From contig JACOZN010000005.1 in NCBI GenBank assembly GCA_016181305.1, positions 1 to 64,000 of the forward strand: 64,000 nt of DNA, given 5' to 3'. The notes under the pieces are model-generated. The model had not been told where the DNA came from, made no database searches, and saw only the letters and a program-made list of their open reading frames with translations. The position numbers were made by a program, and so were the translations under genes. Every line of letters starts with the position of its first letter. Position 1 is the first letter of the stretch. Below, piece by piece: positions 4,151 through 33,787 of this stretch. Source of the DNA: Candidatus Woesearchaeota archaeon (lineage in GTDB: Archaea > Nanobdellota > Nanobdellia > Woesearchaeales > GW2011-AR4).

Positions 4151-4915
4151 CTACCCCACAGCCTCAACAATCTCGGCAAAGCTTTTTGCGTCTAGAGAGG
4201 CGTTCCCGACCAGGCCTCCGTCAATATTGGGCATTGCCAAAAGCTCTTTTGCATTTTCGGGCTTCATCGAGCCGCCGTAAATAATTCTTGTATTCTTTGC
4301 AGCTTCTTCGCCGTACATTCCCTCAAGAAGTTTTCTTATGAATAGGTGAGCATCTTCTGCATCCGCCTTTGTTGCAGCTTTCTGGCTTGGATTGCCCCTG
4401 CTGATTGCCCAAACAGGCTCGTAGGCGACAACAAGCCCCTTGGGATTGGCGACATCTTTAAGGCATTTCAGCAACTGGTCTTCAAGCTCGTCCTCAGTCC
4501 CGCCGTGCCGCCTCTGCTCAAATGTCTCGCCAACGCACAAAATGGGCTTCAAGCCGTGATTTAAGGCAGCAATAACCTTTTTGTTGATTAAACTGTCATT
4601 TTCGCCAGATTCCCTTCTCTCTGAATGCCCCAGAATAACATATTCGCAGCCGATTTCCTTCAGCATCAAGGGCGAGATTTCTCCGGTATAGGCTCCTGAA
4701 TCTTCAAAATTCATGTTTTGGGCGCCTAAATCAATGTTACTGCCTTTCAATTCATTAGAAACAACTTGCAATGAAGTAAAAGGAGGGCAGATTACAATTT
4801 CAACATTTTTTATATTTTTAATTAATTTTTTAAATTCACTAATAAAAGAAACAGCTTCCTTAATTGTCTTGTTCATCTTCCAGTTTGCTGCTATCAACTG
4901 CTGCATTTTTGCCAT
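4151..4915 (-). CDS. tpiA: Triosephosphate isomerase, bacterial-type
   Basis: AANWKMNKT, GAYTGEIS, GHSERR, AYEPVWAI, YGGS, DGGLVG motifs; 254 aa. Confidence 0.97.
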   Translation of the reverse strand: MAKMQQLIAANWKMNKTIKEAVSFISEFKKLIKNIKNVEIVICPPFTSLQVVSNELKGSNIDLGAQNMNFEDSGAYTGEISPLMLKEIGCEYVILGHSERRESGENDSLINKKVIAALNHGLKPILCVGETFEQRRHGGTEDELEDQLLKCLKDVANPKGLVVAYEPVWAISRGNPSQKAATKADAEDAHLFIRKLLEGMYGEEAAKNTRIIYGGSMKPENAKELLAMPNIDGGLVGNASLDAKSFAEIVEAVG

Positions 4916-19719: not shown

Positions 19720-20244
19720 TCATTCCCCCTCCAAATCAACCAAAGTAATCACTTTATACTTTTCTTCGAGCTTTTTCATCCCGCCCAGGTCAGGCAGCCC
19801 GATTATGAAGGCGCACTCGACAACTTTGCCGCCTAGGCATTCAATTAGCTTGCATGCAGCCAAAGCGGTTCCTCCGGTTGCAATCAAATCATCAACAAGC
19901 AGAACCCTCGAGCCTTTTGGTATTGCATCAACATGGACTTCAACAACTGCCCTTCCATACTCCAATTCATAACTTTCCTTTTCTGTCTTTGCAGGGAGCT
20001 TGCCTTCCTTCCTTATTGGCACAAATCCCTTATGAAGCCTGTGGGCAATAGCGCCTCCAATAATAAACCCCCTGCTTTCAATTCCAGCGACCAAGTCAAT
20101 GTGGTAGTTTTTGTATCTTTCACAGAGCCTGTCAATTACATAGTTAAAGGCTTTCGCGTCTTTCAGCAATGTTGTAATGTCCCTGAACATTACTCCCTGC
20201 TTTGGCCAATTTGGGATTGTACGAATGGATGATTTTAGGTCCAT
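19720..20244 (-). CDS. apt: Adenine phosphoribosyltransferase
   Basis: PNWPKQGVMFRDIT, ESRGF, RKEGKLP, VLLVDDLIATGGT. Confidence 0.97.
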   Translation of the reverse strand: MDLKSSIRTIPNWPKQGVMFRDITTLLKDAKAFNYVIDRLCERYKNYHIDLVAGIESRGFIIGGAIAHRLHKGFVPIRKEGKLPAKTEKESYELEYGRAVVEVHVDAIPKGSRVLLVDDLIATGGTALAACKLIECLGGKVVECAFIIGLPDLGGMKKLEEKYKVITLVDLEGE

Positions 20245-20332
20245 AATAAAATGGTTTTTTAGGGGGTATTTATAGTTTTTTGATTTTTGATTATGAATAA
20301 ACTTTTAAATAATATTAGATTACTATGCTCTA

Positions 20333-21464
20333 ATGCTCGTCAACAGCCAAAACTATCGCACTGTATGGATGCAGGATTCTTCTGTTTACTTGATAAACCA
20401 GCAGTTATTGCCGCATAAATTCGAGATTTATCAGGCAAAAAATCATCTTGAAACAGCCGATGCAATCAAGACAATGATTGTGAGGGGAGCGCCTGCGATC
20501 GGCGCAACAGGGGCTTTTGGGGGGAGCGCCTGCGATCGGCGCAACAGGGGCTTTTGGGGTTGCGCAGGCTGCTTTGGAATTTACAGGCAAAGATTTTGAA
20601 AATTTTAAAATTCATCTGAGGAAGGCTGAACAAGTCCTGAAATCAACAAGGCCGACTGCCAATGACTTATTTTTTGGAATTGATTTCGTAATGAAAAAAG
20701 CCCTTGACAATTTTGACGCCGATATTGCAAAAAAATATGCGCTAAAAGCCGCGAATGAATACGCTGACTGGAGCGCTGAAATGTGCAGGCAGATAGGAGA
20801 GCACGGAAATAATCTAATAAAAAATAACCAGAACATTTTAACACACTGCAATGCAGGCGCCTTGGCCTGCGTTGATTTCGGCACTGCATTGTCACCTATA
20901 AGAATAGCCCATTACAGCAAAAAAAATATTTTTGTTTATGTAGATGAAACACGCCCAAGAAACCAGGGAGCTTCTTTGACAGCATGGGAGCTTGCTCAGG
21001 AAAAGATAAATCATGCGATAATAGCTGACAACGCTGCAGGGCATTTCATGAAGCGTGGTAAAATTGACATGGTTATCGTGGGCGCTGACAGGATTGCGAT
21101 GAACGGCGATGTGGCAAACAAGATAGGCACTTATGAAAAGGCTGTTTTGGCAAAAGAAAACAATGTTACATTTTATGTTGCAGCGCCGTCATCAACTTTT
21201 GACATAAGCGCAAAAACCGGAGAGGATATCCCAATAGAGGAAAGGAGTGAAGATGAGATTCTGTACATGCATGGAATGGACGAAAAAGGCAATATAAATA
21301 AATTTAGAATATCACCTAAGGAAAGCACTGCAAAAAACCCTGCCTTTGATGTGACGCCGGCAAAATATATTACTGGAATAATAACTGAAAGGGGAGTTAT
21401 AAAGCCGACAAAAGAGGAAATTGAGAGGTTTGTCGGGGGTAAAATAATTCAACAACCTTTATAA
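20333..21464 (+). pseudogene. mtnA: Methylthioribose-1-phosphate isomerase, frameshifted by a 37-bp tandem duplication (possibly an assembly error)
   Basis: MIVRGAPAIG, TRPTAN.L, LTHCNAGALA, DETRPRNQGA.LTAWEL, VGADRIA.NGD.ANKIGTY, NPAFDVTP motifs across two frames. Confidence 0.92.
20484..20557 (+). repeat. Exact 37-bp tandem duplication (20484-20520 = 20521-20557)
   Basis: GGGGAGCGCCTGCGATCGGCGCAACAGGGGCTTTTGG twice, with G-run microhomology at the junctions. Confidence 0.97.
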
Positions 21465-21495
21465 ACAATAGTTGTTTATCTAACATTGAAATAAA

Positions 21496-22305
21496 ATGGA
21501 TTGGGGGATGAAGAACAGGCTGGCGAGGATTTTCAATCAAAAGAGCGGCAGGACTGTGATGCTTGCTGTTGACCACGGCTATTTTCAGGGCCCTACAACC
21601 GGATTAAAAAAGCCAAGGGAGACAATAACCCCTTTGCTGCCTTACTCTGACTGCTTGTTTGTTACAAGGGGAGTTTTGAGAAATTGCATTGCTCCTGCAA
21701 CAGGCACGCCAATATTTTTGAGGGTTTCCGGAGGCCCAAGCGTTCTGGGAGAGCTTTCAAACGAGGACATAACAACATCTATGAAAGAGGCGTTAAGGCT
21801 GAATGCAGCTGGAGTCGGGATTTCTATTTTTGTAGGAGAAAAAAACGAGGACAGGACTATATCAAACCTTGGCAGGCTGGTGAATGAGGCAGAGGAATAC
21901 GGAATGCCTGTGCTTGCAATAACAGCAGTTGGCAAGGAGATGGCAAGAGATGCAAGATATCTTGGACTGGCGTGCAGGATTGCTGCAGAGATTGGAGCGC
22001 ATATGGTTAAGACCTATTATTGCGAGGAAGACTTTGAAAAGGTCGTTGAAGGCTGCCCTGTGCCGATTGTAATTGCAGGCGGAAAGAAGATTCCTGAAAA
22101 AGATGCCTTGCAGATGGCTTATAATGCAATAAGCAAAGGCGCTGCAGGAGTTGACATGGGCAGGAATATTTTCCAATCAGAAAACCCGGTTGCAATGATG
22201 CAGGCAGTGAGGGCTGTTGTCCATGATAATTATTCTGCTGATGAGGCTTTTGAAATGTTTAACAAATTGAAAGGGCAGAAAGTTGTTTCTAGTGTTGTGG
22301 AATAG
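21496..22305 (+). CDS. lsrF: 3-hydroxy-5-phosphonooxypentane-2,4-dione thiolase (LsrF, DhnA family)
   Basis: DWGM..RL.RIF, DHGYFQGPTTGL, VKTYY, GCPVPIVIAGGKK, GVDMGRNIFQS match the recalled E. coli LsrF sequence. Confidence 0.92.
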   Translation: MDWGMKNRLARIFNQKSGRTVMLAVDHGYFQGPTTGLKKPRETITPLLPYSDCLFVTRGVLRNCIAPATGTPIFLRVSGGPSVLGELSNEDITTSMKEALRLNAAGVGISIFVGEKNEDRTISNLGRLVNEAEEYGMPVLAITAVGKEMARDARYLGLACRIAAEIGAHMVKTYYCEEDFEKVVEGCPVPIVIAGGKKIPEKDALQMAYNAISKGAAGVDMGRNIFQSENPVAMMQAVRAVVHDNYSADEAFEMFNKLKGQKVVSSVVE

Positions 22306-22342
22306 AAAGTTATTTATACAGGTATTTTGAAGAATAACTTTT

Positions 22343-22912
22343 GTGCTAAAAAACAAGAAAGCGGCATCATTCGGGACAATTGTCGCCATTTTTGGCTCTG
22401 TACTTATTGCTCTTGGCGTTGCCTGGCTTATTGCGCAAAATTGGCACCAGATGCCTGCACCGCTCAAAATTTTCATTCTTCTTGCGGCGACAAGCGGGGC
22501 TTACACAGCGGGCACGATACTTAGAGTTCGCGATTATCACGGCATTGGAAAGGCACTGCTTGTCCTGGGCGCATTGCTTTACACCCTAAGCATTTTTTTG
22601 ATTGCGCAGATATACTCAACCAAAGTAACTTTTCAGGGGCAGGCTTGGCTATGGCTATTGGCTTGGGCTGGGATTTTTGCTGCTTCATATGGATTCCAGT
22701 CTTCGGCAAGCTATGTTGTTGCAGTAATCGAATACGGCATATGGGTTATTATCCAGACTTTCGCATTTTTTGAATCGGCAGGTTTATTTTCTGGAGGTGG
22801 TTATGGGCATGCTGTTCTTGCATCATTTTTCATGGTTTCTGGAATTGCCTTAGCGCTAACAACCGGCTCAGCCTTATACCTTAAATGGAGGGAATCAAAA
22901 TCGCCTGGCTAG
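22343..22912 (+). CDS. DUF2157-like membrane protein
   Basis: GSVLIALGVAWLIAQNW...LIAQIY signature. Confidence 0.75.
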   Translation: MLKNKKAASFGTIVAIFGSVLIALGVAWLIAQNWHQMPAPLKIFILLAATSGAYTAGTILRVRDYHGIGKALLVLGALLYTLSIFLIAQIYSTKVTFQGQAWLWLLAWAGIFAASYGFQSSASYVVAVIEYGIWVIIQTFAFFESAGLFSGGGYGHAVLASFFMVSGIALALTTGSALYLKWRESKSPG

Positions 22913-24018
22913 GATACTTTGGATACTTTGGAATATTCTTTTGGTTGATTTTTTTGATACCTGTAATAATAGTTGTGGCATGGTTTTTCTCTCGTAGGAA
23001 AACAACAAAAACATTTCAAGATGCATTATATACCATCTATGGACTCTTATCGTCAAATATAATCTTCTGGCTTGCGCTTATGCTCCTTAGAATTTCAAAA
23101 TTACAGCATGCAGTTTATGTTTTGCTTTTGGCAATGGTTGTAGTTGCAGTCATTGCTTACTATTTCCAATCATCTGGGAGCCTTATGCTGGCAATGTTAG
23201 AGCTTGTTACTTTAGTTATACTGCAATATGCAGCATTTATAGAAGCAAAAGAAGATTTTATCTCGCCGGGGTTCTTGGCATTTTACTTGCTCCTCGTAGG
23301 ACTTATTCTTTATGGCTTAAGCTTGGTGCACAGGGCTATGAAGCACAAGTTTGGCAGGGTATTTCAGGAATGGAGCGCTTTTTATTTGCTTTTATTTAGC
23401 TATATTCTTTCCTTTCAGATTTTGCTGCCTTACTTATGGCCAAGCGAGTCAAAATCCACAACAGGAGCTGTAGCAATGCTGTTCATAATGGCTGTGCTGG
23501 CTATTGCTTCCTTGGTCATTGGAGTGATGGGCTCGGTAAGCAACAAATCTGTTCAAAACAGGGAAATAGGCTTATTTGTTGTTTTTGTGGTATTGCTGTC
23601 TTTGCTCATATGGGCTACTAGTTTTGTTTCTGATTCGCAAGCAGATTATGGCTATTATGGAAGAGGTCCTTCTGTTTCTGGCCCGCTGCTTTATGTGTGG
23701 ATTTTCTCTAACACTATCTTTATAGGAATAATTCTTGCAATAATCGGCTATGGAACATGGCAGAAAATTCCTAAGATAATCAATTTAGGCATATTATTCT
23801 TTGCCGTTGACATTATTACAAGATATATTGGGTTTATAATGGACTATTGGGGTTACACAAGCCTTGCCATAATATTCATAAGCGGGGGGCTTATTTTGCT
23901 GGCAGGTGGATATGGAATAGAGAAATGGCGAAGGAGTTTAATAAGCAAGGCAAAATCGGGAACAATTCCACCATCTTCTAGGACTCCGCAATCAACTGCA
24001 AGATATACAAGAAAATGA
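22885..24018 (+). CDS. Polytopic membrane protein (DUF2157/DUF4401-like)
   Basis: About 10 TM segments; C-terminal INLG..F...II.RY...D.W...S..FI.GG pattern. Confidence 0.7.
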   Translation: MEGIKIAWLGYFGYFGIFFWLIFLIPVIIVVAWFFSRRKTTKTFQDALYTIYGLLSSNIIFWLALMLLRISKLQHAVYVLLLAMVVVAVIAYYFQSSGSLMLAMLELVTLVILQYAAFIEAKEDFISPGFLAFYLLLVGLILYGLSLVHRAMKHKFGRVFQEWSAFYLLLFSYILSFQILLPYLWPSESKSTTGAVAMLFIMAVLAIASLVIGVMGSVSNKSVQNREIGLFVVFVVLLSLLIWATSFVSDSQADYGYYGRGPSVSGPLLYVWIFSNTIFIGIILAIIGYGTWQKIPKIINLGILFFAVDIITRYIGFIMDYWGYTSLAIIFISGGLILLAGGYGIEKWRRSLISKAKSGTIPPSSRTPQSTARYTRK

Positions 24019-24530
24019 ACCAGTATGCTCGCTTAATAATCGTTTTGGCAATACTTCTTGGTATATCGGGCACTTTTCTTCTTTATCTGGCATGGCCATC
24101 ACTTACTGGACAAACAATTGTTCTGGCTTTAAGGCCAGTTGATCCCTTTGACCCTTTCAGGGGGCAGTATATAACTCTTAATTATGAGATAAATGCTATT
24201 CCCTCTGTTGATGGCGCAAAGGAAAGCGATGCAGTTTATATCTCCTTGAAGGAAGATGAAAACAAAATTTGGAGGTACGAATCAGCATCTTTGGAAAAAC
24301 CGCAGCGAGGCATATTTATTAAAGGAACAATAAAATCAATTTATGGCGGCACAACGAGAGTTGAATATGGCATTGAGCAATTCTTCTTTGAAAGGCATGC
24401 GGAATTTCCCCAGCGCGATTTAACCGTCGAAGTGAAAGTAAGCAGTTCCGGGCAGGCAAGAATATCCCAATTGCTGCATGAAGGCAATCCAATTAACATA
24501 ACTTACAGAAAACCAAGCCTGACTTCTTAA
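24015..24530 (+). CDS. GDYXXLXY-family protein
   Basis: L.L.PVDPFDPFRGQYITLNY and YGIEQFF motifs; ATGA overlap. Confidence 0.88.
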   Translation: MNQYARLIIVLAILLGISGTFLLYLAWPSLTGQTIVLALRPVDPFDPFRGQYITLNYEINAIPSVDGAKESDAVYISLKEDENKIWRYESASLEKPQRGIFIKGTIKSIYGGTTRVEYGIEQFFFERHAEFPQRDLTVEVKVSSSGQARISQLLHEGNPINITYRKPSLTS

Positions 24531-24570
24531 TCACAAAACCTTTTTATAAGCATTAAATATTCTTTTCTTT

Positions 24571-25596
24571 ATGAAAGTTGCAGTCTATTACAACAACAAG
24601 GATGTAAGGATAGAAGAGCGCCCAGTTCCGGCAATAAGCGACGGCGAGATTCTTGTAAAGGTAATTGCTTCAGGAATCTGCGGCAGCGATGTCATGGAGT
24701 GGTACAGGATAAAGAAAGCGCCTCTTGTCCTGGGGCATGAATTCAGCGGCGTTATTGAAAAAACCGGCAAAAATGTGAAAAATTTCAAGATTGGCGACAG
24801 GGTTATGGTTTCCCATCATGTGCCGTGCATGAAATGCCATTACTGCCTGAACAACCACCATACTGCATGCGAAACACTCCATAAGACAAACATTGAGCCC
24901 GGAGGATTCTCGGAATACATAAGAGTCCCGAAAATAAATGTTGAATTAGGGACTTTTAAGCTGCCAGATGATATTTCTTTTGAAGAAGGCACTTTTGTCG
25001 AGCCTGTTGGGACTACTATAAGAGCGCAGAGGCTGGCAAATTTAAACAATAACCAAACATTGCTTGTAATCGGAAGCGGCATCTCTGGATTAATGCATAT
25101 AAAATTGGCAAAATCAAAAGGCGTCAAAAAAATAATCGCAGCTGACATTAATGAATACAGGCTGAATGCTGCAAAAAAATTCGGGGCGGATTTTGCTTTG
25201 GATGCAAATCAAGATTTAATTGAAAAAATAAAAGAAATAAACGAAGAAAGGCTGGCAGATTTGGTAATTGTATGCGCAGGCGCAATGCCGGCTGCAAAGC
25301 AAGCCTTCCAATGCGTTGACAAGGGCGGCACAATCATGTTTTTTGCAGTTCCTAAGCCCGATGAACATTTTGAAATTCCAATAAATGATTTCTGGAGGAA
25401 TGAAATAAAAATAATGACTTCTTACGGCGCTGCGCCGGATGATTTAAAAGAGTCATTGGAACTGATTAAAAATAAAAAGATAAATGTTGCTGATATGATA
25501 ACGCACAGATTAAAGTTTGATGAAATACAGAAGGGGTTTCAGTTGGTTGCTGAGGCTAAAGATTCTTTGAAGGTTATTGTTTACCCAAATAAATAA
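24571..25596 (+). CDS. Zn-dependent (sorbitol/threonine dehydrogenase-like) MDR alcohol dehydrogenase
   Basis: GICGSD, GHEFSG, CxxCxxC...C structural Zn site, GSGISG, acidic residue (ADINEYR) suggesting NAD. Confidence 0.93.
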   Translation: MKVAVYYNNKDVRIEERPVPAISDGEILVKVIASGICGSDVMEWYRIKKAPLVLGHEFSGVIEKTGKNVKNFKIGDRVMVSHHVPCMKCHYCLNNHHTACETLHKTNIEPGGFSEYIRVPKINVELGTFKLPDDISFEEGTFVEPVGTTIRAQRLANLNNNQTLLVIGSGISGLMHIKLAKSKGVKKIIAADINEYRLNAAKKFGADFALDANQDLIEKIKEINEERLADLVIVCAGAMPAAKQAFQCVDKGGTIMFFAVPKPDEHFEIPINDFWRNEIKIMTSYGAAPDDLKESLELIKNKKINVADMITHRLKFDEIQKGFQLVAEAKDSLKVIVYPNK

Positions 25597-25661
25597 AATG
25601 TGAATAAAAATACAATAAAAACTAATTCGTGAAAAAATAATCCGATAATGAAAATAAAATC

Positions 25662-26611
25662 AAAAAATCACGAGAGCGACTTTTTGCTGCAAAAGTTATT
25701 AAAGTAATCCGCTTGTGATTTTTTTATTAAAAATCATTCTCCGCCAATCACCGCACTCTTTATATCTTCCCTGCACCGGCAGTCAATGTAATTTATTTTT
25801 GGAATGGCTTCAAGTAGCAATTTTTTCACATTCTCGGCATTCTTGCGCATTGTTTTCAAAATCATCCCGATATTGACGCCGTCTTCATGCGGATGCCAGA
25901 CATCGAAGTCCGTTGACATCGCGACAATCGCATAGCAAATCCCAGCTTCCCTTGCCAAAACAACTTCTGGCACAGTGCTCATGTTGATGACATCAGCATT
26001 CCATTGCCTGTACATGTGGCTCTCTGCCTTTGTAGAAAATCTAGGTCCTTCAATTGTTACAACCGTGCCTTTCTTGTGATGCTCAAATTTCATCTCTTTT
26101 GCGGCTTCTGCAAGCAGTTCCCTTAATCTTTTGCAAAAAGGCTCTGCCATCGGAATGTGGCAGACTTTATCAGAATCATAAAAAGTTTGATGCCTTTTTG
26201 TTGTCCTGTCAATGAACTGGTCGCAGAAAACCAAATGCCCGGGCTTTATCTCCTCCCTCAAAGAGCCGCATGCAGTTGTTGCAATTATATGGGTGCAGCC
26301 CTGCTCTTTCAATGCCATTATGTTTGCCCTGTAATTGACATTGCTCGGCATTATTGTGTGCTTTTTGCCGTGTCTTGCCAGAATCACAACGTTAACATTC
26401 CCTATTTTGCCTATTACTAAAGCGCTTGAGGGGTTGCCGAATCCTGTTGTTGAATTTATTTCTCTTGCATCTTTCAGAATTCTCGGATCTTCCAATCCAG
26501 AGCCGCCAATTATGCCGATTTTTATTATCCCAACCACCTATTAATTATTAATAAATCACAAGCTGGTCTCCTCACTCACCATGCTTATAGAGGACGCTCT
26601 CGTTATTTTTT
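25662..26611. repeat. Imperfect 19-bp inverted repeats (17/19) flanking mtnP (25662-25680 / 26593-26611)
   Basis: AAAAAATCACGAGAGCGAC versus reverse complement AAAAAATAACGAGAGCGTC. Confidence 0.45.
25734..26537 (-). CDS. mtnP: S-methyl-5'-thioadenosine phosphorylase
   Basis: [56 protein letters not shown]. Confidence 0.95.
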
Positions 26612-31159: not shown

Positions 31160-31386
31160 AAAATAAATTTTGGGCAAATTCAAAAACAAAAAAATTTTAA
31201 GAACACGAAGAAAATTTTATCGTCGAGGAATCCAATCCAAAGAATTTTTGGCGTAAGAATATCGGGAAAAAATGCAAAAAAATCATAAAAATTGTCGTCG
31301 GAAAAAACAAAAAAAGAAAAGATTTAAATACTACCTTTATAATTTATTTTAAATTGAAAAGAGGATTTTCAAACCGTGAATTTAAA

Positions 31387-31782
31387 ATGAGCGAATTTGG
31401 ATTGCACGTTACAATCGATGCATCAAGGTGCAACAAACAGAAGCTGATTTCAGTGCCCTTGGTGTATGATGTTCTAGACAACTTGCCTGCAAGGATAGGA
31501 ATGACAAAGATGACTCTGCCCTATGTGGTAAAATGGCTGGATAAGTTCTCGGAAGGAACTCCGGGCATTTCCGGGTTTGTCATGATTGCAGAAAGCCACA
31601 TAAGCATCCACACATTCCCCGACCAGGATTACGTGTTCATGGACATATTCTCGTGCAAGGAGTTTGACGCTGAGAAGGCAATAAGCTACCTTGTGAGGGC
31701 TTTTGAAGCCAAAAAATACGAAAAGCATGTCCTGAAGAGGGGCATGGACTTCCCGAGAAAGGTAATTTTAAGCCAGATGTAA
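31387..31782 (+). CDS. speD: Pyruvoyl-dependent S-adenosylmethionine decarboxylase proenzyme
   Basis: G.SG.VMIAE/SHISIHTFP...F.DIFSC cleavage motif. Confidence 0.9.
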   Translation: MSEFGLHVTIDASRCNKQKLISVPLVYDVLDNLPARIGMTKMTLPYVVKWLDKFSEGTPGISGFVMIAESHISIHTFPDQDYVFMDIFSCKEFDAEKAISYLVRAFEAKKYEKHVLKRGMDFPRKVILSQM

Positions 31783-31863
31783 TCGAGTTTCCAGTTCTTA
31801 ATCGGGATTTTTCCAATAACTTCAACAGAAGATTTTTATTCCGCTGGCTCTAACTACCCAATC

Positions 31864-32736
31864 ATGGCTAGAAATCCAATACACAATAAACTCAAAATCG
31901 GGCTTGTTCAGGCAAAAGTAAGCGATAAAGTTGATTCTAACCTGTCAAAGACGGCAAAGCTTGTCAGCCATGCGGCAAGAAAGGGGGCATCAATAGTCTG
32001 CCTTCAGGAGCTTTTTGCAACGCCTTATTTCTGCCAGCAGGAGAGAAAAGAATTGTTCAGGATGGCAGAGAAAATCCCGGGCAAAATCTCAAAATTCCTC
32101 TCAAAAACCGCAAAAACGAATAAAGTTGCATTGGTTGGCGGCTCTATTTTCGAAAAAGGCGAAGACAACAAATACTATAACACCTCCCTAATACTTGACG
32201 ACAAGGGAAATTTAATTGGAAAATACCGCAAGGTTCACATTCCTCACGATCCCGGCTATTACGAGCAGTATTATTTTAGTTCCGGCAATCTTGGCTATGT
32301 GCAGGCAGATTTCAACAATGTCAGGCTAGCGCCTTTGATATGTTATGACCAATGGTATCCTGAAGCAGCGAGAATAAATGCCCTAAGGGGGGCATCTGTC
32401 ATTTTCTACCCAACTGCCATAGGCTGGACTGCTGACATGAAAGAAAACGAGCCATTTTCAGCTGAAAGGTGGCAAAACTCGATGTGCGGGCACGCCTCAA
32501 TGAACGGCGTTTACGTAGCTGCTGCAAACAGGGTTGGCAAGGAGGGTGGCATAGATTTTTGGGGCGGTTCTTTTGTAACAGACCCATTTGGAGAGATTAT
32601 TAAGAGAGCCAGCAGCTCTAAAGAAGAAGTTTTAATTGCCGAAATTGATTTAGGCAAAGTTGCAAGCTCTCAGGAAGGATGGGGTTTTCTTGAAAACAGA
32701 AAGCCCATGACTTACAGGGAATTATACGAAATCTGA
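31864..32736 (+). CDS. aguB: N-carbamoylputrescine amidase (carbon-nitrogen hydrolase)
   Basis: CLQELF, YRKVHIPHDPGYYEQYYF, ICYDQWYPEAAR; adjacent to aguA. Confidence 0.88.
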   Translation: MARNPIHNKLKIGLVQAKVSDKVDSNLSKTAKLVSHAARKGASIVCLQELFATPYFCQQERKELFRMAEKIPGKISKFLSKTAKTNKVALVGGSIFEKGEDNKYYNTSLILDDKGNLIGKYRKVHIPHDPGYYEQYYFSSGNLGYVQADFNNVRLAPLICYDQWYPEAARINALRGASVIFYPTAIGWTADMKENEPFSAERWQNSMCGHASMNGVYVAAANRVGKEGGIDFWGGSFVTDPFGEIIKRASSSKEEVLIAEIDLGKVASSQEGWGFLENRKPMTYRELYEI

Positions 32737-32746
32737 TATTAATCTC

Positions 32747-33787
32747 ATGAATTCTCCAAAAGAACTCGGCTTTAGGATGCCTGCGGAATGGGAACCACAA
32801 GAAGCAATCTGGCTTGCATGGCCTCACAACAAGGACACATGGCCAGCTGAAATGCTTATGGAAGTTGAGGATTCCTATGCCAAATTTGTCAAAGTTTTGC
32901 ATACCGGGCAGAAAGTTAAGATTTTGGTTGGCAATCACGATTCTGAATTAAAAGTTAGGGAAAAGCTAAACCAAGCAGGGATAAACCTTTCCCAAATCAT
33001 CCTTTACCAAATTGGCAATCAAGATGCTTGGATTAGGGACTATGGACCGACTTTTGTGGTAAACAACAAAGAAAACAAGCTTGCAATGGTTAAATGGGTA
33101 TTCAATGCATGGGGCGACAAGTACGATGATTTAAAGCCGGACAATGGAATTCCCTATGAAATGAATAAAATAATGAAATTGCCTCTTTTTGAGCCAGGAA
33201 TTGTCTTGGAAGGCGGCTCTATAGAAGCCAATGGCTCTGGGACATTGCTAACAACTGAGCAGTGCCTTTTAAGCAAAAATAGAAATTCAAATCTAAAGAA
33301 AGATGAAATTGAAAAGTATCTCAAAGACTACCTTAATGTTTCCAATATTTTATGGCTCAGGGAAGGGATTGCAGGAGACGACACTGATGGGCATATAGAC
33401 GACATTGCAAGATTTGTAAACCAAAATACAGTGGTTTGCGCCTTTGAAGAAAACGAAAATGATGAAAATCACAGCATTTTACTTGAAAATTATAAGCTGT
33501 TGAGCCAAATGAGAGATGAAAGAGGCAATAAGCTGAATATCATAAAGCTCCCTATGCCTGGCTTTGTTGGAGATGATGAAAGAAGGTATCCGGCAAGCTA
33601 CACAAACTTCTACATTGGCAATGAAGCAGTTGTTGTGTCGATTTTTGGGCATGAGAATGACAGCAAAGCGCTTGAAATACTGCAAAAGCTTTTTCCAAAT
33701 AGAAAAGTCGTTGGTGTAAACTGCAAAGCTATGGCGTATGGATTTGGAGCATTGCATTGTGTAAGCCAGCAGGAACCAAAAATTTAG
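32747..33787 (+). CDS. aguA: Agmatine deiminase
   Basis: MPAEWEP, DAWIRDYGP, LEGGSI, DDTDGHIDD, SYTNF, GALHCVSQQ. Confidence 0.95.
   Translation: MNSPKELGFRMPAEWEPQEAIWLAWPHNKDTWPAEMLMEVEDSYAKFVKVLHTGQKVKILVGNHDSELKVREKLNQAGINLSQIILYQIGNQDAWIRDYGPTFVVNNKENKLAMVKWVFNAWGDKYDDLKPDNGIPYEMNKIMKLPLFEPGIVLEGGSIEANGSGTLLTTEQCLLSKNRNSNLKKDEIEKYLKDYLNVSNILWLREGIAGDDTDGHIDDIARFVNQNTVVCAFEENENDENHSILLENYKLLSQMRDERGNKLNIIKLPMPGFVGDDERRYPASYTNFYIGNEAVVVSIFGHENDSKALEILQKLFPNRKVVGVNCKAMAYGFGALHCVSQQEPKI

Follow-up and report, generated by a model that had tools for sequence, protein, structure and literature searches.

The locus described here raises the question of what a homologue of LsrF does in an archaeon whose neighbouring genes belong to nucleoside salvage. 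The window, that is, the whole stretch of 64,000 nucleotides analysed, belongs to the 78%-complete genome of a tiny archaeon of Woesearchaeota type (G000 in the genome set), and this limit applies to every genome-wide absence given below. An earlier note had described five clustered genes, apt, mtnA, an LsrF-like gene, a Zn dehydrogenase and mtnP, together with a tpiA in the window. All of them are confirmed, the five lying within 6.8 kb, and the features are as follows.

4151-4915, minus strand: TpiA
19720-20244, minus strand: apt, adenine phosphoribosyltransferase, 174 aa (NF002634, 261 bits; TIGR01090, 236 bits; both above cut-off)
20333-21464, plus strand: mtnA, 5-methylthioribose-1-P / 5-deoxyribose-1-P isomerase (TIGR00512), split into two ORFs
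20484-20557, no strand: perfect 37-bp tandem duplication in two copies (TRF), shifting the mtnA frame
21496-22305, plus strand: LsrF-like class I aldolase-fold enzyme, 269 aa, putative 3-hydroxy-2,4-pentanedione-5-phosphate thiolase (NF006081, 430 bits against a cut-off of 297)
22343-24530, plus strand: three membrane-protein ORFs (Pfam), namely DUF2157, an unassigned ORF and GDYXXLXY
24571-25596, plus strand: Zn-dependent medium-chain dehydrogenase, 341 aa, Tdh/polyol-DH type (ADH_N and ADH_zinc_N domains)
25734-26537, minus strand: mtnP, 5'-methylthioadenosine / 5'-deoxyadenosine phosphorylase, 267 aa (TIGR01694, 323 bits against a cut-off of 275)

The LsrF-like gene starts 31 nt past the mtnA stop, and mtnP is convergent with the dehydrogenase gene. 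This arrangement, as well as the position of apt, is the same in the relatives L002, L004 and L036. Since the genome holds eight radical-SAM genes and a spermidine synthase, and the window encodes a SAM decarboxylase, the by-products 5'-deoxyadenosine and 5'-methylthioadenosine (MTA) are both made in this organism.

Judged from its gene content, the cluster has about an even chance of being a salvage unit for the SAM by-product 5'-deoxyadenosine, perhaps for MTA too, ending in a predicted oxidation and CoA thiolysis. In such a unit, MtnP would release adenine and 5-deoxyribose-1-P by nucleoside phosphorolysis, Apt would convert the adenine to AMP, and MtnA would isomerize the sugar to 5-deoxyribulose-1-P. 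A two-enzyme cassette, conserved in many phyla, would then take the place of the usual class II aldolase step. The Zn dehydrogenase would oxidize the methyl-carbinol C4 of 5-deoxyribulose-1-P, yielding 3-hydroxy-2,4-pentanedione-5-phosphate (P-HPD), from which the LsrF-like enzyme, through a Schiff base on Lys172 and with CoA, would form DHAP, destined for TpiA, and acetyl-CoA (methylthioacetyl-CoA if the sugar came from MTA). The substrate, the position oxidized and thiolytic rather than aldol cleavage are what we infer here.

The LsrF-like protein appears orthologue-grade given its NF006081 score, its ~60% identity (336 bits) to the E. coli LsrF structures 3GKF and 4P2V, and the retention of 9/9 residues named in the LsrF structure paper. 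Indeed, D26, H27, K172, G195, G196, D220, M221, G222 and R223 align with E. coli D57, H58, K203, G226, G227, D251, M252, G253 and R254, and according to that paper Asp251 is replaced by Ser or Ala in related aldolases. In the tree, E. coli LsrF falls within a 12-row subclade nested inside a wider LsrF-like radiation, and two members of this subclade keep an adjoining dehydrogenase.

The NCBIfam name of the protein, LsrF, would suggest the processing of imported autoinducer-2 (AI-2), a form of quorum quenching, and lsrF of marine ammonia-oxidising archaea has been taken as an AI-2 processing gene (PMC11442133, 2024). However, LsrK, LsrG, LsrB and LsrR were not found in the 78%-complete genome (tblastn, E. 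coli proteins), nor within 10 kb of any of the 80 best LsrF-like loci, which come from more than ten phyla. No FGGY kinase was found in the genome either, and P-HPD cannot arise from AI-2 without LsrK and LsrG. AI-2 processing is therefore close to refuted and highly improbable, and the independence from AI-2 signalling proposed earlier is supported. Extending the searches to the whole 78%-complete genome also upheld further gaps that the earlier note had seen in the window, as neither the class II aldolase/MtnB family (PF00596) nor ARD/MtnD was found; RuBisCO or RLP was not found there either. The ADP-forming acetyl-CoA synthetase domain was likewise not detected in this genome, which counts against an acetyl-CoA-forming route.

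The dehydrogenase had been described as sorbitol-DH-like, and its nearest solved structures agree with this: ketose reductase (1E3J), sorbitol DH (SDH), L-threonine 3-DH (TDH) and galactitol-1-P 5-DH (GatD). Its best NCBIfam model is Tdh (198 bits, below the cut-off of 380). It carries the zinc motifs C37/H56/E57 and E144, a structural four-Cys site (C86, C89, C92, C100) and a Rossmann GxGxxG followed by a conserved Asp192 after the beta-2 strand, a position at which Asp marks NAD use. By sequence it would be an NAD-type enzyme of the Tdh/polyol type, proposed here as a candidate 5-deoxyribulose-1-P 4-dehydrogenase.

A Zn-ADH homologue was counted as a partner when within 2.5 kb of the LsrF-like gene, and 65 of the 80 best loci have one. 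Pairs occur in Nitrospirota, Nitrososphaerota, Omnitrophota, Thermodesulfobacteriota, Binatota, Acidobacteriota, Methanoperedens, Thermoplasmatota and other groups. In four loci without Zn-ADH, a class II aldolase/SDR-dehydrogenase fusion adjoins LsrF instead. The conserved unit is thus the pair, in which a dehydrogenase partner looks near-obligate, and no third conserved neighbour was found across the 80 loci.

Co-occurrence ties this pair to salvage of the MtnA/MtnP type. MtnA scores above cut-off in 47/50 pair-bearing genomes. Within Thermoplasmatota, MtnA is present in 42/44 LsrF-positive versus 60/107 LsrF-negative genomes (Fisher p 7e-7) and within Nanoarchaeota in 2/2 versus 10/199. Common descent and the wide occurrence of MtnA inflate these co-occurrence figures. 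The PF00596 family is absent from 30/50 pair-bearing genomes.

The same pair could act on 1-deoxy-D-xylulose-5-phosphate (DXP) in an overflow or catabolic route, with C4 oxidation giving what would chemically be the identical product, P-HPD, LsrF then forming DHAP and acetyl-CoA, and the mtn neighbourhood being secondary. A bona fide DXS, unexpected in this genome, is indeed encoded there (826 bits). The enzyme is rare in the phylum sample (6/201 genomes), yet the two LsrF holders among these 201 both have it, and with G201, G214 and G228 so do all Woesearchaeota-type holders. DXS exceeds its cut-off in only 24/50 pair-bearing genomes, against 47/50 for MtnA, and was missing from every genome of ammonia-oxidising archaea, Methanoperedens and Thermoplasmata that was checked. 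As the 80 loci show no dxs linkage among their recurrent neighbours and the cassette here lies between mtnA and mtnP, a role in DXP breakdown is improbable.

In several lineages, the pair is also physically linked to genes of the mtn group or to apt. Such linkage is found in the clade of the window (L002, L004, L036), in G035 (mtnA, aldII, lsrF, ADH), in L078 and the Anaerolineae locus L080, in the Binatia locus L084 (apt, lsrF, aldII-SDR fusion, mtnP), and in the Thermoplasmatota G284 and G291. Together, co-occurrence and repeated linkage support the tie between the pair and MtnA/MtnP-type salvage. Of the conserved gene linkage anticipated in the earlier note, the LsrF-ADH part holds widely and the mtn part extends to these lineages, but mtn linkage is rare outside Thermoplasmatota (about 4/50 genomes), ~90% of pairs having no adjacent mtn gene. 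Moreover, in both G035 and G284 a small class II aldolase-like gene belongs to one operon with mtnA and LsrF, and G074, a congener of G035, has mtnA-aldII without the cassette; for these reasons the cassette may be an accessory that acts on some other substrate.

Such a substrate might be another phosphorylated keto-sugar, for instance a 6-deoxyhexulose-1-P or a pentulose-1-P arising when nucleosides or sugars are broken down, in which case the tie to MtnA/MtnP would be indirect. The many pairs devoid of mtn neighbours and the lack of a third conserved neighbour fit this idea, as do the RhaD-like aldolase/SDR fusions, familiar in rhamnose catabolism, that adjoin LsrF in L084, L086, L091 and L101. 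In L084, however, apt and an MTAP-type phosphorylase accompany the fusion and LsrF, the co-occurrence with MtnA is strong, and among the holders are ammonia oxidisers that live autotrophically as well as tiny DPANN genomes poor in sugar catabolism. Degradation of another sugar phosphate is consequently rather unlikely.

A further possibility, unlikely although somewhat less so, would be a DHAP shunt that relies on a non-orthologous aldolase. In this case, the LsrF-like enzyme would cleave 5-deoxy- or 5-methylthio-ribulose-1-P into DHAP and acetaldehyde or methylthioacetaldehyde, and the Zn dehydrogenase would reduce the toxic aldehyde to an alcohol, as in the DHAP-ethylene shunt. Both the fold and the catalytic residues of the protein, which are those of a class I aldolase, would allow it, an alcohol dehydrogenase step ends the known DHAP shunt (PMC10986504), the co-occurrence and linkage of MtnA fit equally well, and 30/50 pair holders lack a class II aldolase. 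On the other hand, the protein shares ~60% identity with a thiolase whose CoA dependence is proven and which is nested in the same clade, it keeps the LsrF-specific Asp251, and its partner falls among the dehydrogenases of secondary alcohols, polyols and threonine. To our knowledge, described DHAP-shunt clusters carry no dedicated ADH, whereas the pairing here is near-obligate, and a second aldolase would be redundant in G035 and G284, where a class II aldolase-like gene already stands in the operon. The oxidative-thiolytic route, from 5-deoxyribulose-1-P through P-HPD to predicted DHAP and acetyl-CoA, is the best-supported reading, held with roughly half of our confidence.

Two peculiarities of the locus bear on this route. 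The N-terminal mtnA ORF (20333-20599; 88 aa, 52 bits on TIGR00512) and the C-terminal one (20517-21464; 315 aa, 361 bits) result from the frameshift brought about by the two duplicate copies, 20484-20520 and 20521-20557 (period 37, 2.1 copies, 100% match). Deleting one copy in silico gives an open 364-aa frame. The extra copy is missing from L002, L004 and L036, and relatives carry mtnA as a single 358-aa gene. Genome-wide, there are just four perfect tandem duplications in the range of 32-52 bp, this one included. The frameshift may interrupt the pathway in this archaeon; alternatively, the duplication could be artefactual. The membrane-protein ORFs (DUF2157, 22343-22912; unassigned, 22885-24018; GDYXXLXY, 24015-24530) separate LsrF from the dehydrogenase here and in L002 and L036, whereas the two genes abut in L004, which lacks these ORFs. 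They were not found near LsrF in the remaining loci of the 80-locus comparison, and are a lineage-specific insertion, probably outside the pathway.

The pathway of the earlier note stands in part. An LsrF working outside AI-2 signalling, its dehydrogenase partner, the mtn tie and sound chemistry speak for it, but the frame-shifted mtnA, the aldII-like genes in the G035 and G284 operons and the DXS of the genome complicate it. No paper describing this route was found in the literature, in line with its presentation as undescribed.

One known system for comparison is AroA' (MJ0400), the ADH synthase of the DKFP pathway by which archaea make aromatic amino acids. It is a member of the same DeoC/LacD-fold subfamily, acts on a methyl-ketone sugar 1-phosphate and provides the next-nearest solved structure (2QJG, 149 bits). 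The window protein differs in reaching only 195 bits on TIGR01949 (cut-off 299), and no DHQ synthase II was found in the 78%-complete genome. Ammonia oxidisers and Methanoperedens possess a separate true AroA' beside DHQS-II, besides their LsrF-like gene.

The DHAP shunt for 5-deoxyribose disposal (MtnP or MtnK/DrdK, MtnA/DrdI, Ald2/DrdA; PMC6079011, PMC10986504) shares with the proposed route MtnP, MtnA and adenine salvage, the substrates 5'-deoxyadenosine and MTA, and the product DHAP. Only two variants of it are named, both with Ald2 (PMC10986504). It thus employs a class II aldolase, not found in the 78%-complete genome, and releases a free aldehyde, whereas the proposed route would yield acetyl-CoA and NADH by oxidation and CoA-dependent cleavage.

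The proposed chemistry is sound and is paralleled by threonine dehydrogenase (Tdh) and 2-amino-3-ketobutyrate CoA ligase (Kbl). Tdh oxidizes CH3-CHOH-CHX-C(=O)-, a moiety that 5-deoxyribulose-1-P also bears, after which Kbl, the partner of Tdh, liberates acetyl-CoA. The proposed route would share this logic, with a Zn-MDR dehydrogenase turning CH3-CHOH into a beta-dicarbonyl and a second enzyme cleaving the latter with CoA to acetyl-CoA. The dehydrogenase here matches Tdh models best, yet at 150-200 bits against cut-offs of 380 or more, and cleavage falls to a Schiff-base TIM barrel instead of a PLP enzyme, with a sugar phosphate as presumed substrate.

The closest relative remains LsrF of the E. 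coli/Salmonella lsr operon (3-hydroxy-5-phosphonooxypentane-2,4-dione thiolase, EC 2.3.1.245; 3GKF, 3GLC, 4P2V), ~60% identical over the whole barrel and of the same NCBIfam equivalog. Common to both are the Lys that forms the Schiff base, Asp57/His58, Asp251 and the Gly/Arg residues that bind phosphate. In the window protein the ~31-aa N-terminal domain-swap extension is missing, and the window has no lsrK, lsrG, lsrACDB or lsrR. Whereas the partner in the lsr operon is the isomerase LsrG, here it is a dehydrogenase, with mtnA, mtnP and apt as neighbours, and in the tree the dehydrogenase-paired radiation contains the E. coli type as a derived subclade. If the proposed route is true, a close homologue of LsrF, the "quorum-sensing" enzyme, would serve the recycling of a waste sugar into DHAP, acetyl-CoA and NADH with no free aldehyde.

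The five genes that the earlier note assigned to a salvage pathway (apt, mtnA, an lsrF-like gene, a Zn dehydrogenase and mtnP) are real, with domain or profile matches at their coordinates. The region is flanked by aIF2-gamma, S6e and a ZPR1 homologue, and its closest relatives at the protein level carry the labels Woesearchaeota or Nanoarchaeota. From mtnA through the dehydrogenase, all genes run in one direction with intergenic gaps of 31-40 nt.

4151-4915, TpiA, elsewhere in the window
19720-20244, minus strand, apt
20333-21464, plus strand, mtnA, split in two frames in the assembly (TIGR00512-type score 361 bits, above cut-off)
21496-22305, plus strand, LsrF-like gene (NF006081, 430 bits)
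22343-24530, plus strand, three membrane-protein ORFs (DUF2157, unassigned, GDYXXLXY)
24571-25596, plus strand, Zn-MDR dehydrogenase of the polyol-dehydrogenase type
25734-26537, minus strand, mtnP (323 bits, above cut-off)

The source genome (G000) is a 1.07-Mb assembly of 22 contigs, 78% complete, and absences in it carry that limit. With MtnP and MtnA at 323 and 361 bits, both above cut-off, it holds the phosphorylase and isomerase genes of the DHAP shunt, the latter frame-shifted. It also encodes eight radical-SAM genes and one spermidine synthase, and both by-products, 5'-deoxyadenosine and MTA, are predicted from this gene content to be made. A polyamine gene string (SAM decarboxylase, 31354-31782; N-carbamoylputrescine amidase, 31864-32736; agmatine deiminase, 32747-33787) spans 31354-33787 of the window. 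Genes for MTA production are thus encoded near the salvage cluster, at a distance of 5 kb.

In the assembly, the frame of mtnA is shifted by a perfect 37-bp tandem duplication at 20484-20557; deleting one copy in silico gives an open frame of 364 aa, and the extra copy is absent from three relatives of the window clade (L002, L004 and L036). Only four perfect tandem duplications of 32-52 bp occur in G000, which is above chance expectation for 1 Mb:

contig C2, 11433, 52 bp
contig C4, 40911, 32 bp
contig C5 (that of the window), 20484, 37 bp
contig C19, 45473, 36 bp

Because all four differ in length, a fixed k-mer join artefact is unlikely; they may be true micro-duplications or may stem from amplification or assembly. 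The three membrane-protein ORFs (DUF2157, unassigned, GDYXXLXY) are an insertion between lsrF and the dehydrogenase. The order in L004 is apt (minus), mtnA, a small ORF, lsrF, dehydrogenase and mtnP (minus), with 45 nt from lsrF to the dehydrogenase, and the insertion is carried by L002 and L036. The DUF2157 protein is a single 600-aa ORF in L002, and at 22343-24018 the window has two ORFs, 189 and 377 aa long, that overlap and meet at two copies of a 9-bp tandem repeat, GGATACTTT; possibly a second gene is disrupted here. The mtnA-lsrF interval holds a small ORF without assignment (107-140 aa) in L002 (7548-7970) and L004 (7600-7923); the window is without it, its gap there being only 31 nt. 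L036 has the gene order of the window (apt, mtnA, lsrF, DUF2157, GDYXXLXY, dehydrogenase, mtnP). The MAGs of L036 and of another locus, L055, are labelled 'uncultured Methanosarcinales'; these labels look wrong, the two loci being either syntenic with Woesearchaeota loci or sister to them.

On the LsrF equivalog NF006081 (cut-off 297), the LsrF-like protein reaches 430 bits; of 201 genomes sampled from the phylum, only 2 attain the cut-off. It matches the E. coli LsrF structures at 336 bits and about 60% identity. The key residues of E. coli LsrF are Asp57, His58, Lys203, Gly226, Gly227, Asp251, Met252, Gly253 and Arg254, the position of Asp251 being Ser or Ala in related aldolases (PMC2728841). 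All of these are kept in the window protein, the catalytic and phosphate-binding ones as D26, H27, K172, G195, G196, D220, G222 and R223 in a HMMER alignment to 3GKF. CoA-dependent cleavage of 3-hydroxy-2,4-pentanedione-5-phosphate (P-HPD) to DHAP and acetyl-CoA is its putative activity. An N-terminal extension of about 31 residues is missing, the start aligning to E. coli residue 32; in the E. coli enzyme, which has an N-terminal domain-swap segment, the first beta-strand begins at residue 51 (PMC2728841).

A maximum-likelihood tree of 108 rows, built by quick search with SH-aLRT support, places E. coli LsrF in a subclade of 12 rows (support 99), to which the N-terminal extension is confined and all of whose members have it. 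This subclade is nested in a 92-row LsrF radiation (support 95), and in two of its members (loci L074 and L113) a Zn dehydrogenase still adjoins lsrF. The proven thiolase is a derived member of a dehydrogenase-paired family, and this nesting favours a common reaction type throughout the LsrF family.

The earlier note had stated that this LsrF homologue stands without lsrK and its partners, and that absence holds. No homologue of E. coli LsrK, LsrG, LsrB or LsrR was found by tblastn in the 78% complete G000, nor an FGGY kinase domain by domain search, and tblastn with the E. coli proteins found no lsr context (LsrK, LsrG, LsrACDB) within 10 kb of any of 80 loci. A role in AI-2 processing is therefore rejected. 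In marine ammonia-oxidiser genomes, lsrF is present in nearly all and was read in 2024 as AI-2 machinery, its transcripts tracking metabolic marker genes (PMC11442133).

A second reading, AroA' of the DKFP route, is likewise rejected. The window protein scores 195 bits on the AroA' model TIGR01949 against a cut-off of 299, DHQ synthase II (PF01959) was not found in G000, and only 16 of 50 holders of the LsrF-like gene have DHQ synthase II, these carrying a separate true AroA'. In ammonia-oxidising archaea and Methanoperedens, the true AroA' lies next to DHQ synthase II (e.g., G216:C1:1246317-1248132), and these genomes have the LsrF-like gene as well, and the AroA' of the aromatic pathway is by its sequence a paralogue distinct from the LsrF-like protein. 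AroA' and DHQ synthase II stand for the DKFP route, by which aromatic amino acids are made.

Scanning GTDB species, each represented by one genome, yielded about 600 relatives, the best 80 of which, 60-89% identical to the window protein, were examined. They come from Nitrospirota, Nitrososphaerota, Omnitrophota, Thermodesulfobacteriota, Binatota, Acidobacteriota, Methanoperedens, Thermoplasmatota and others. Among these best 80, a homologue of the window dehydrogenase lies within 2.5 kb of LsrF in 65 and within 10 kb in 67, and no third generally conserved gene was found near the pair. Most loci of bacteria, those of Methanoperedens and several from other archaea have the dehydrogenase downstream, with 46-63% identity; in nearly all ammonia-oxidiser loci it is immediately upstream, with 32-40% identity. 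Of the loci that lack the Zn enzyme, several are truncated at a contig end. In four others, its place directly beside LsrF is taken by a fusion of about 700 aa that joins a class II aldolase, with a RhaD-like N-terminus, to a short-chain dehydrogenase:

L101:4293-6380, aldolase/SDR fusion
L086:3731-5839, aldolase/SDR fusion
L084:6732-8843, aldolase/SDR fusion, between LsrF and an MTAP-type phosphorylase
L091:95-2218, aldolase/SDR fusion

With a Zn enzyme or an SDR fusion beside LsrF, LsrF-like enzymes nearly always have a dehydrogenase partner, drawn from two unrelated folds. G213 (locus L054) and G228 (locus L078), two genomes flagged as unpublished, enter the counts 65/80, 47/50, 30/50, 24/50 and 16/50; when they are left out, the values are 63/78 for the dehydrogenase, 45/48 for MtnA, 29/48 for no PF00596, 22/48 for DXS and 16/48 for DHQ synthase II.

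The nearest solved structures of the window dehydrogenase are ketose reductase and sorbitol, threonine, galactitol-1-P, xylitol and butanediol dehydrogenases. It carries catalytic Zn ligands (C37, H56/E57, E144), a structural site (C86, C89, C92, C100), G168xG170xxG173 and D192. Across 64 partners, the Cys/His-Glu/Glu set, the four-Cys site, GxGxxG, the Asp, an HH before the structural lobe and T311-H312 are kept; Cys148 of most partners is Thr in the window lineage (L002, L004 and L036 likewise). This motif set suggests a Zn-MDR enzyme of the polyol-dehydrogenase type, the Asp probably marking NAD use. Tdh is the best NCBIfam model both for the window enzyme and for LsrF-partnered dehydrogenases from six other loci in other phyla, but only at about half of the cut-off. 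The Tdh models TIGR00692 and NF003808, whose cut-offs are 458 and 380, give the window enzyme 196-198 bits, and the six others score 146-190 bits; a true threonine dehydrogenase is rejected on these scores.

Of the gene co-occurrence that the earlier note named as a check, that of the lsrF-dehydrogenase pair with mtnA was found: MtnA is above cut-off in 47 of 50 pair-bearing genomes, with one more partial. In a Nanoarchaeota sample of 201 genomes, the LsrF equivalog is present in two of different families (G000 and G035). Both are among the 12 genomes that have MtnA (LsrF-MtnA association, Fisher p 0.003), and 71 have MTAP. Among 151 Thermoplasmatota genomes, 44 have an LsrF-like gene, and MtnA is found in 42 of these versus 60 of the 107 others (p 7e-7). 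Both p values ignore shared ancestry and overstate significance.

Linkage also recurs in several lineages. The cassette is physically linked with mtn or apt genes in the window clade, in L078 (resting on the unpublished G228) and in the Anaerolineae locus L080. In G035, mtnA forms an overlapping operon with lsrF, the dehydrogenase and, between mtnA and lsrF, a gene resembling class II aldolases, and in the Binatia locus L084, apt, lsrF, the fusion and the MTAP-type phosphorylase are linked. In the Thermoplasmatota, an aldolase-like gene, mtnA and lsrF overlap in G284, and lsrF and mtnA are divergent in G291. The cassette is present in G035 and absent from its congener G074 (L035:3099-6546 versus L119:6479-7955). 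At the syntenic site, G074 keeps mtnA and the aldolase-like gene alone, which makes the cassette an add-on there; it behaves as a mobile one.

Class II aldolase-like genes thus recur with the cassette (G035, G284). The small G035 protein scores at most 67 bits on FucA, MtnB, AraD and ribulose-1-P aldolase models, and it may be an epimerase, a dehydratase or a genuine aldolase acting on one substrate. The family of MtnB and Ald2/DrdA, PF00596, is missing in 30 of 50 holders; it has no match in G000 or its closest relative G201, and ARD and RuBisCO/RLP were not found in G000.

DXP would offer another substrate, as its oxidation at C4 gives the same diketone as that proposed for 5-deoxyribulose-1-P. 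G000 has a bona fide DXS (TIGR00204, 826 bits, C19:31056-32897, outside the window), hence a second possible source of P-HPD, and local action of the pair on DXP in this genome is possible. Of the 201 genomes sampled from the phylum, only 6 have DXS, yet it is in every Woesearchaeota-type holder checked (G000, G035, G201, G214, G228), which suggests that these archaea have a MEP route of the bacterial type. As a universal substrate, however, DXP is rejected because only 24 of 50 pair-bearing genomes have DXS, with none among the ammonia oxidisers, Methanoperedens and Thermoplasmata checked.

The substrate proposed for the pair is the product of MtnA. The cassette dehydrogenase would oxidise 5-deoxyribulose-1-P to P-HPD, and the LsrF-like enzyme would cleave it to DHAP and acetyl-CoA, NADH being gained. 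The earlier note's observation of a gene cluster is confirmed, and its reading as a salvage pathway independent of AI-2 signalling is partly supported. That the pair acts downstream of MtnA on 5-deoxy- or methylthio-ribulose-1-P is probable, whereas the case for the oxidative-thiolytic mechanism specifically is evenly balanced. More tentatively still, aldehyde-free oxidative-thiolytic disposal of 5'-deoxyadenosine may be the primary, ancestral job of the LsrF family in bacteria and archaea, with enterobacterial AI-2 processing a late co-option.

To our knowledge, every cell using radical-SAM enzymes needs to dispose of 5'-deoxyadenosine, and many archaea and anaerobes lack the two described post-MtnA routes (class II aldolase and promiscuous routes). 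If the proposal is true, a widespread two-gene cassette fills this gap while conserving the C2 unit as acetyl-CoA, and the step after MtnA is explained in many genomes without MtnB, Ald2 or RLP, including all ammonia-oxidising archaea checked. It would imply a new enzyme activity, 5-deoxyribulose-1-P 4-dehydrogenase. It would also correct a systematic annotation error, "LsrF / AI-2 thiolase" calls having already been taken as quorum-sensing evidence in ammonia-oxidising archaea (PMC11442133). Literature searches found nothing that connects LsrF to deoxyribulose, to methylthioribulose or to by-products of SAM, and LsrF is mentioned neither in the 5-deoxyribose paper nor in a methionine-salvage review.

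In the 2024 DHAP-shunt paper, only two shunt variants are named, both ending in Ald2, and a search of it for 'thiolase' brought up no LsrF (PMC10986504). G000, being without PF00596, differs from both described variants. A parallel is offered by threonine catabolism. Tdh oxidises the moiety CH3-CHOH-CH(X)-C(=O)-, and 5-deoxyribulose-1-P ends in exactly this group; from the Tdh/Kbl parallel, we infer that oxidation at C4 would give P-HPD, the substrate of LsrF.
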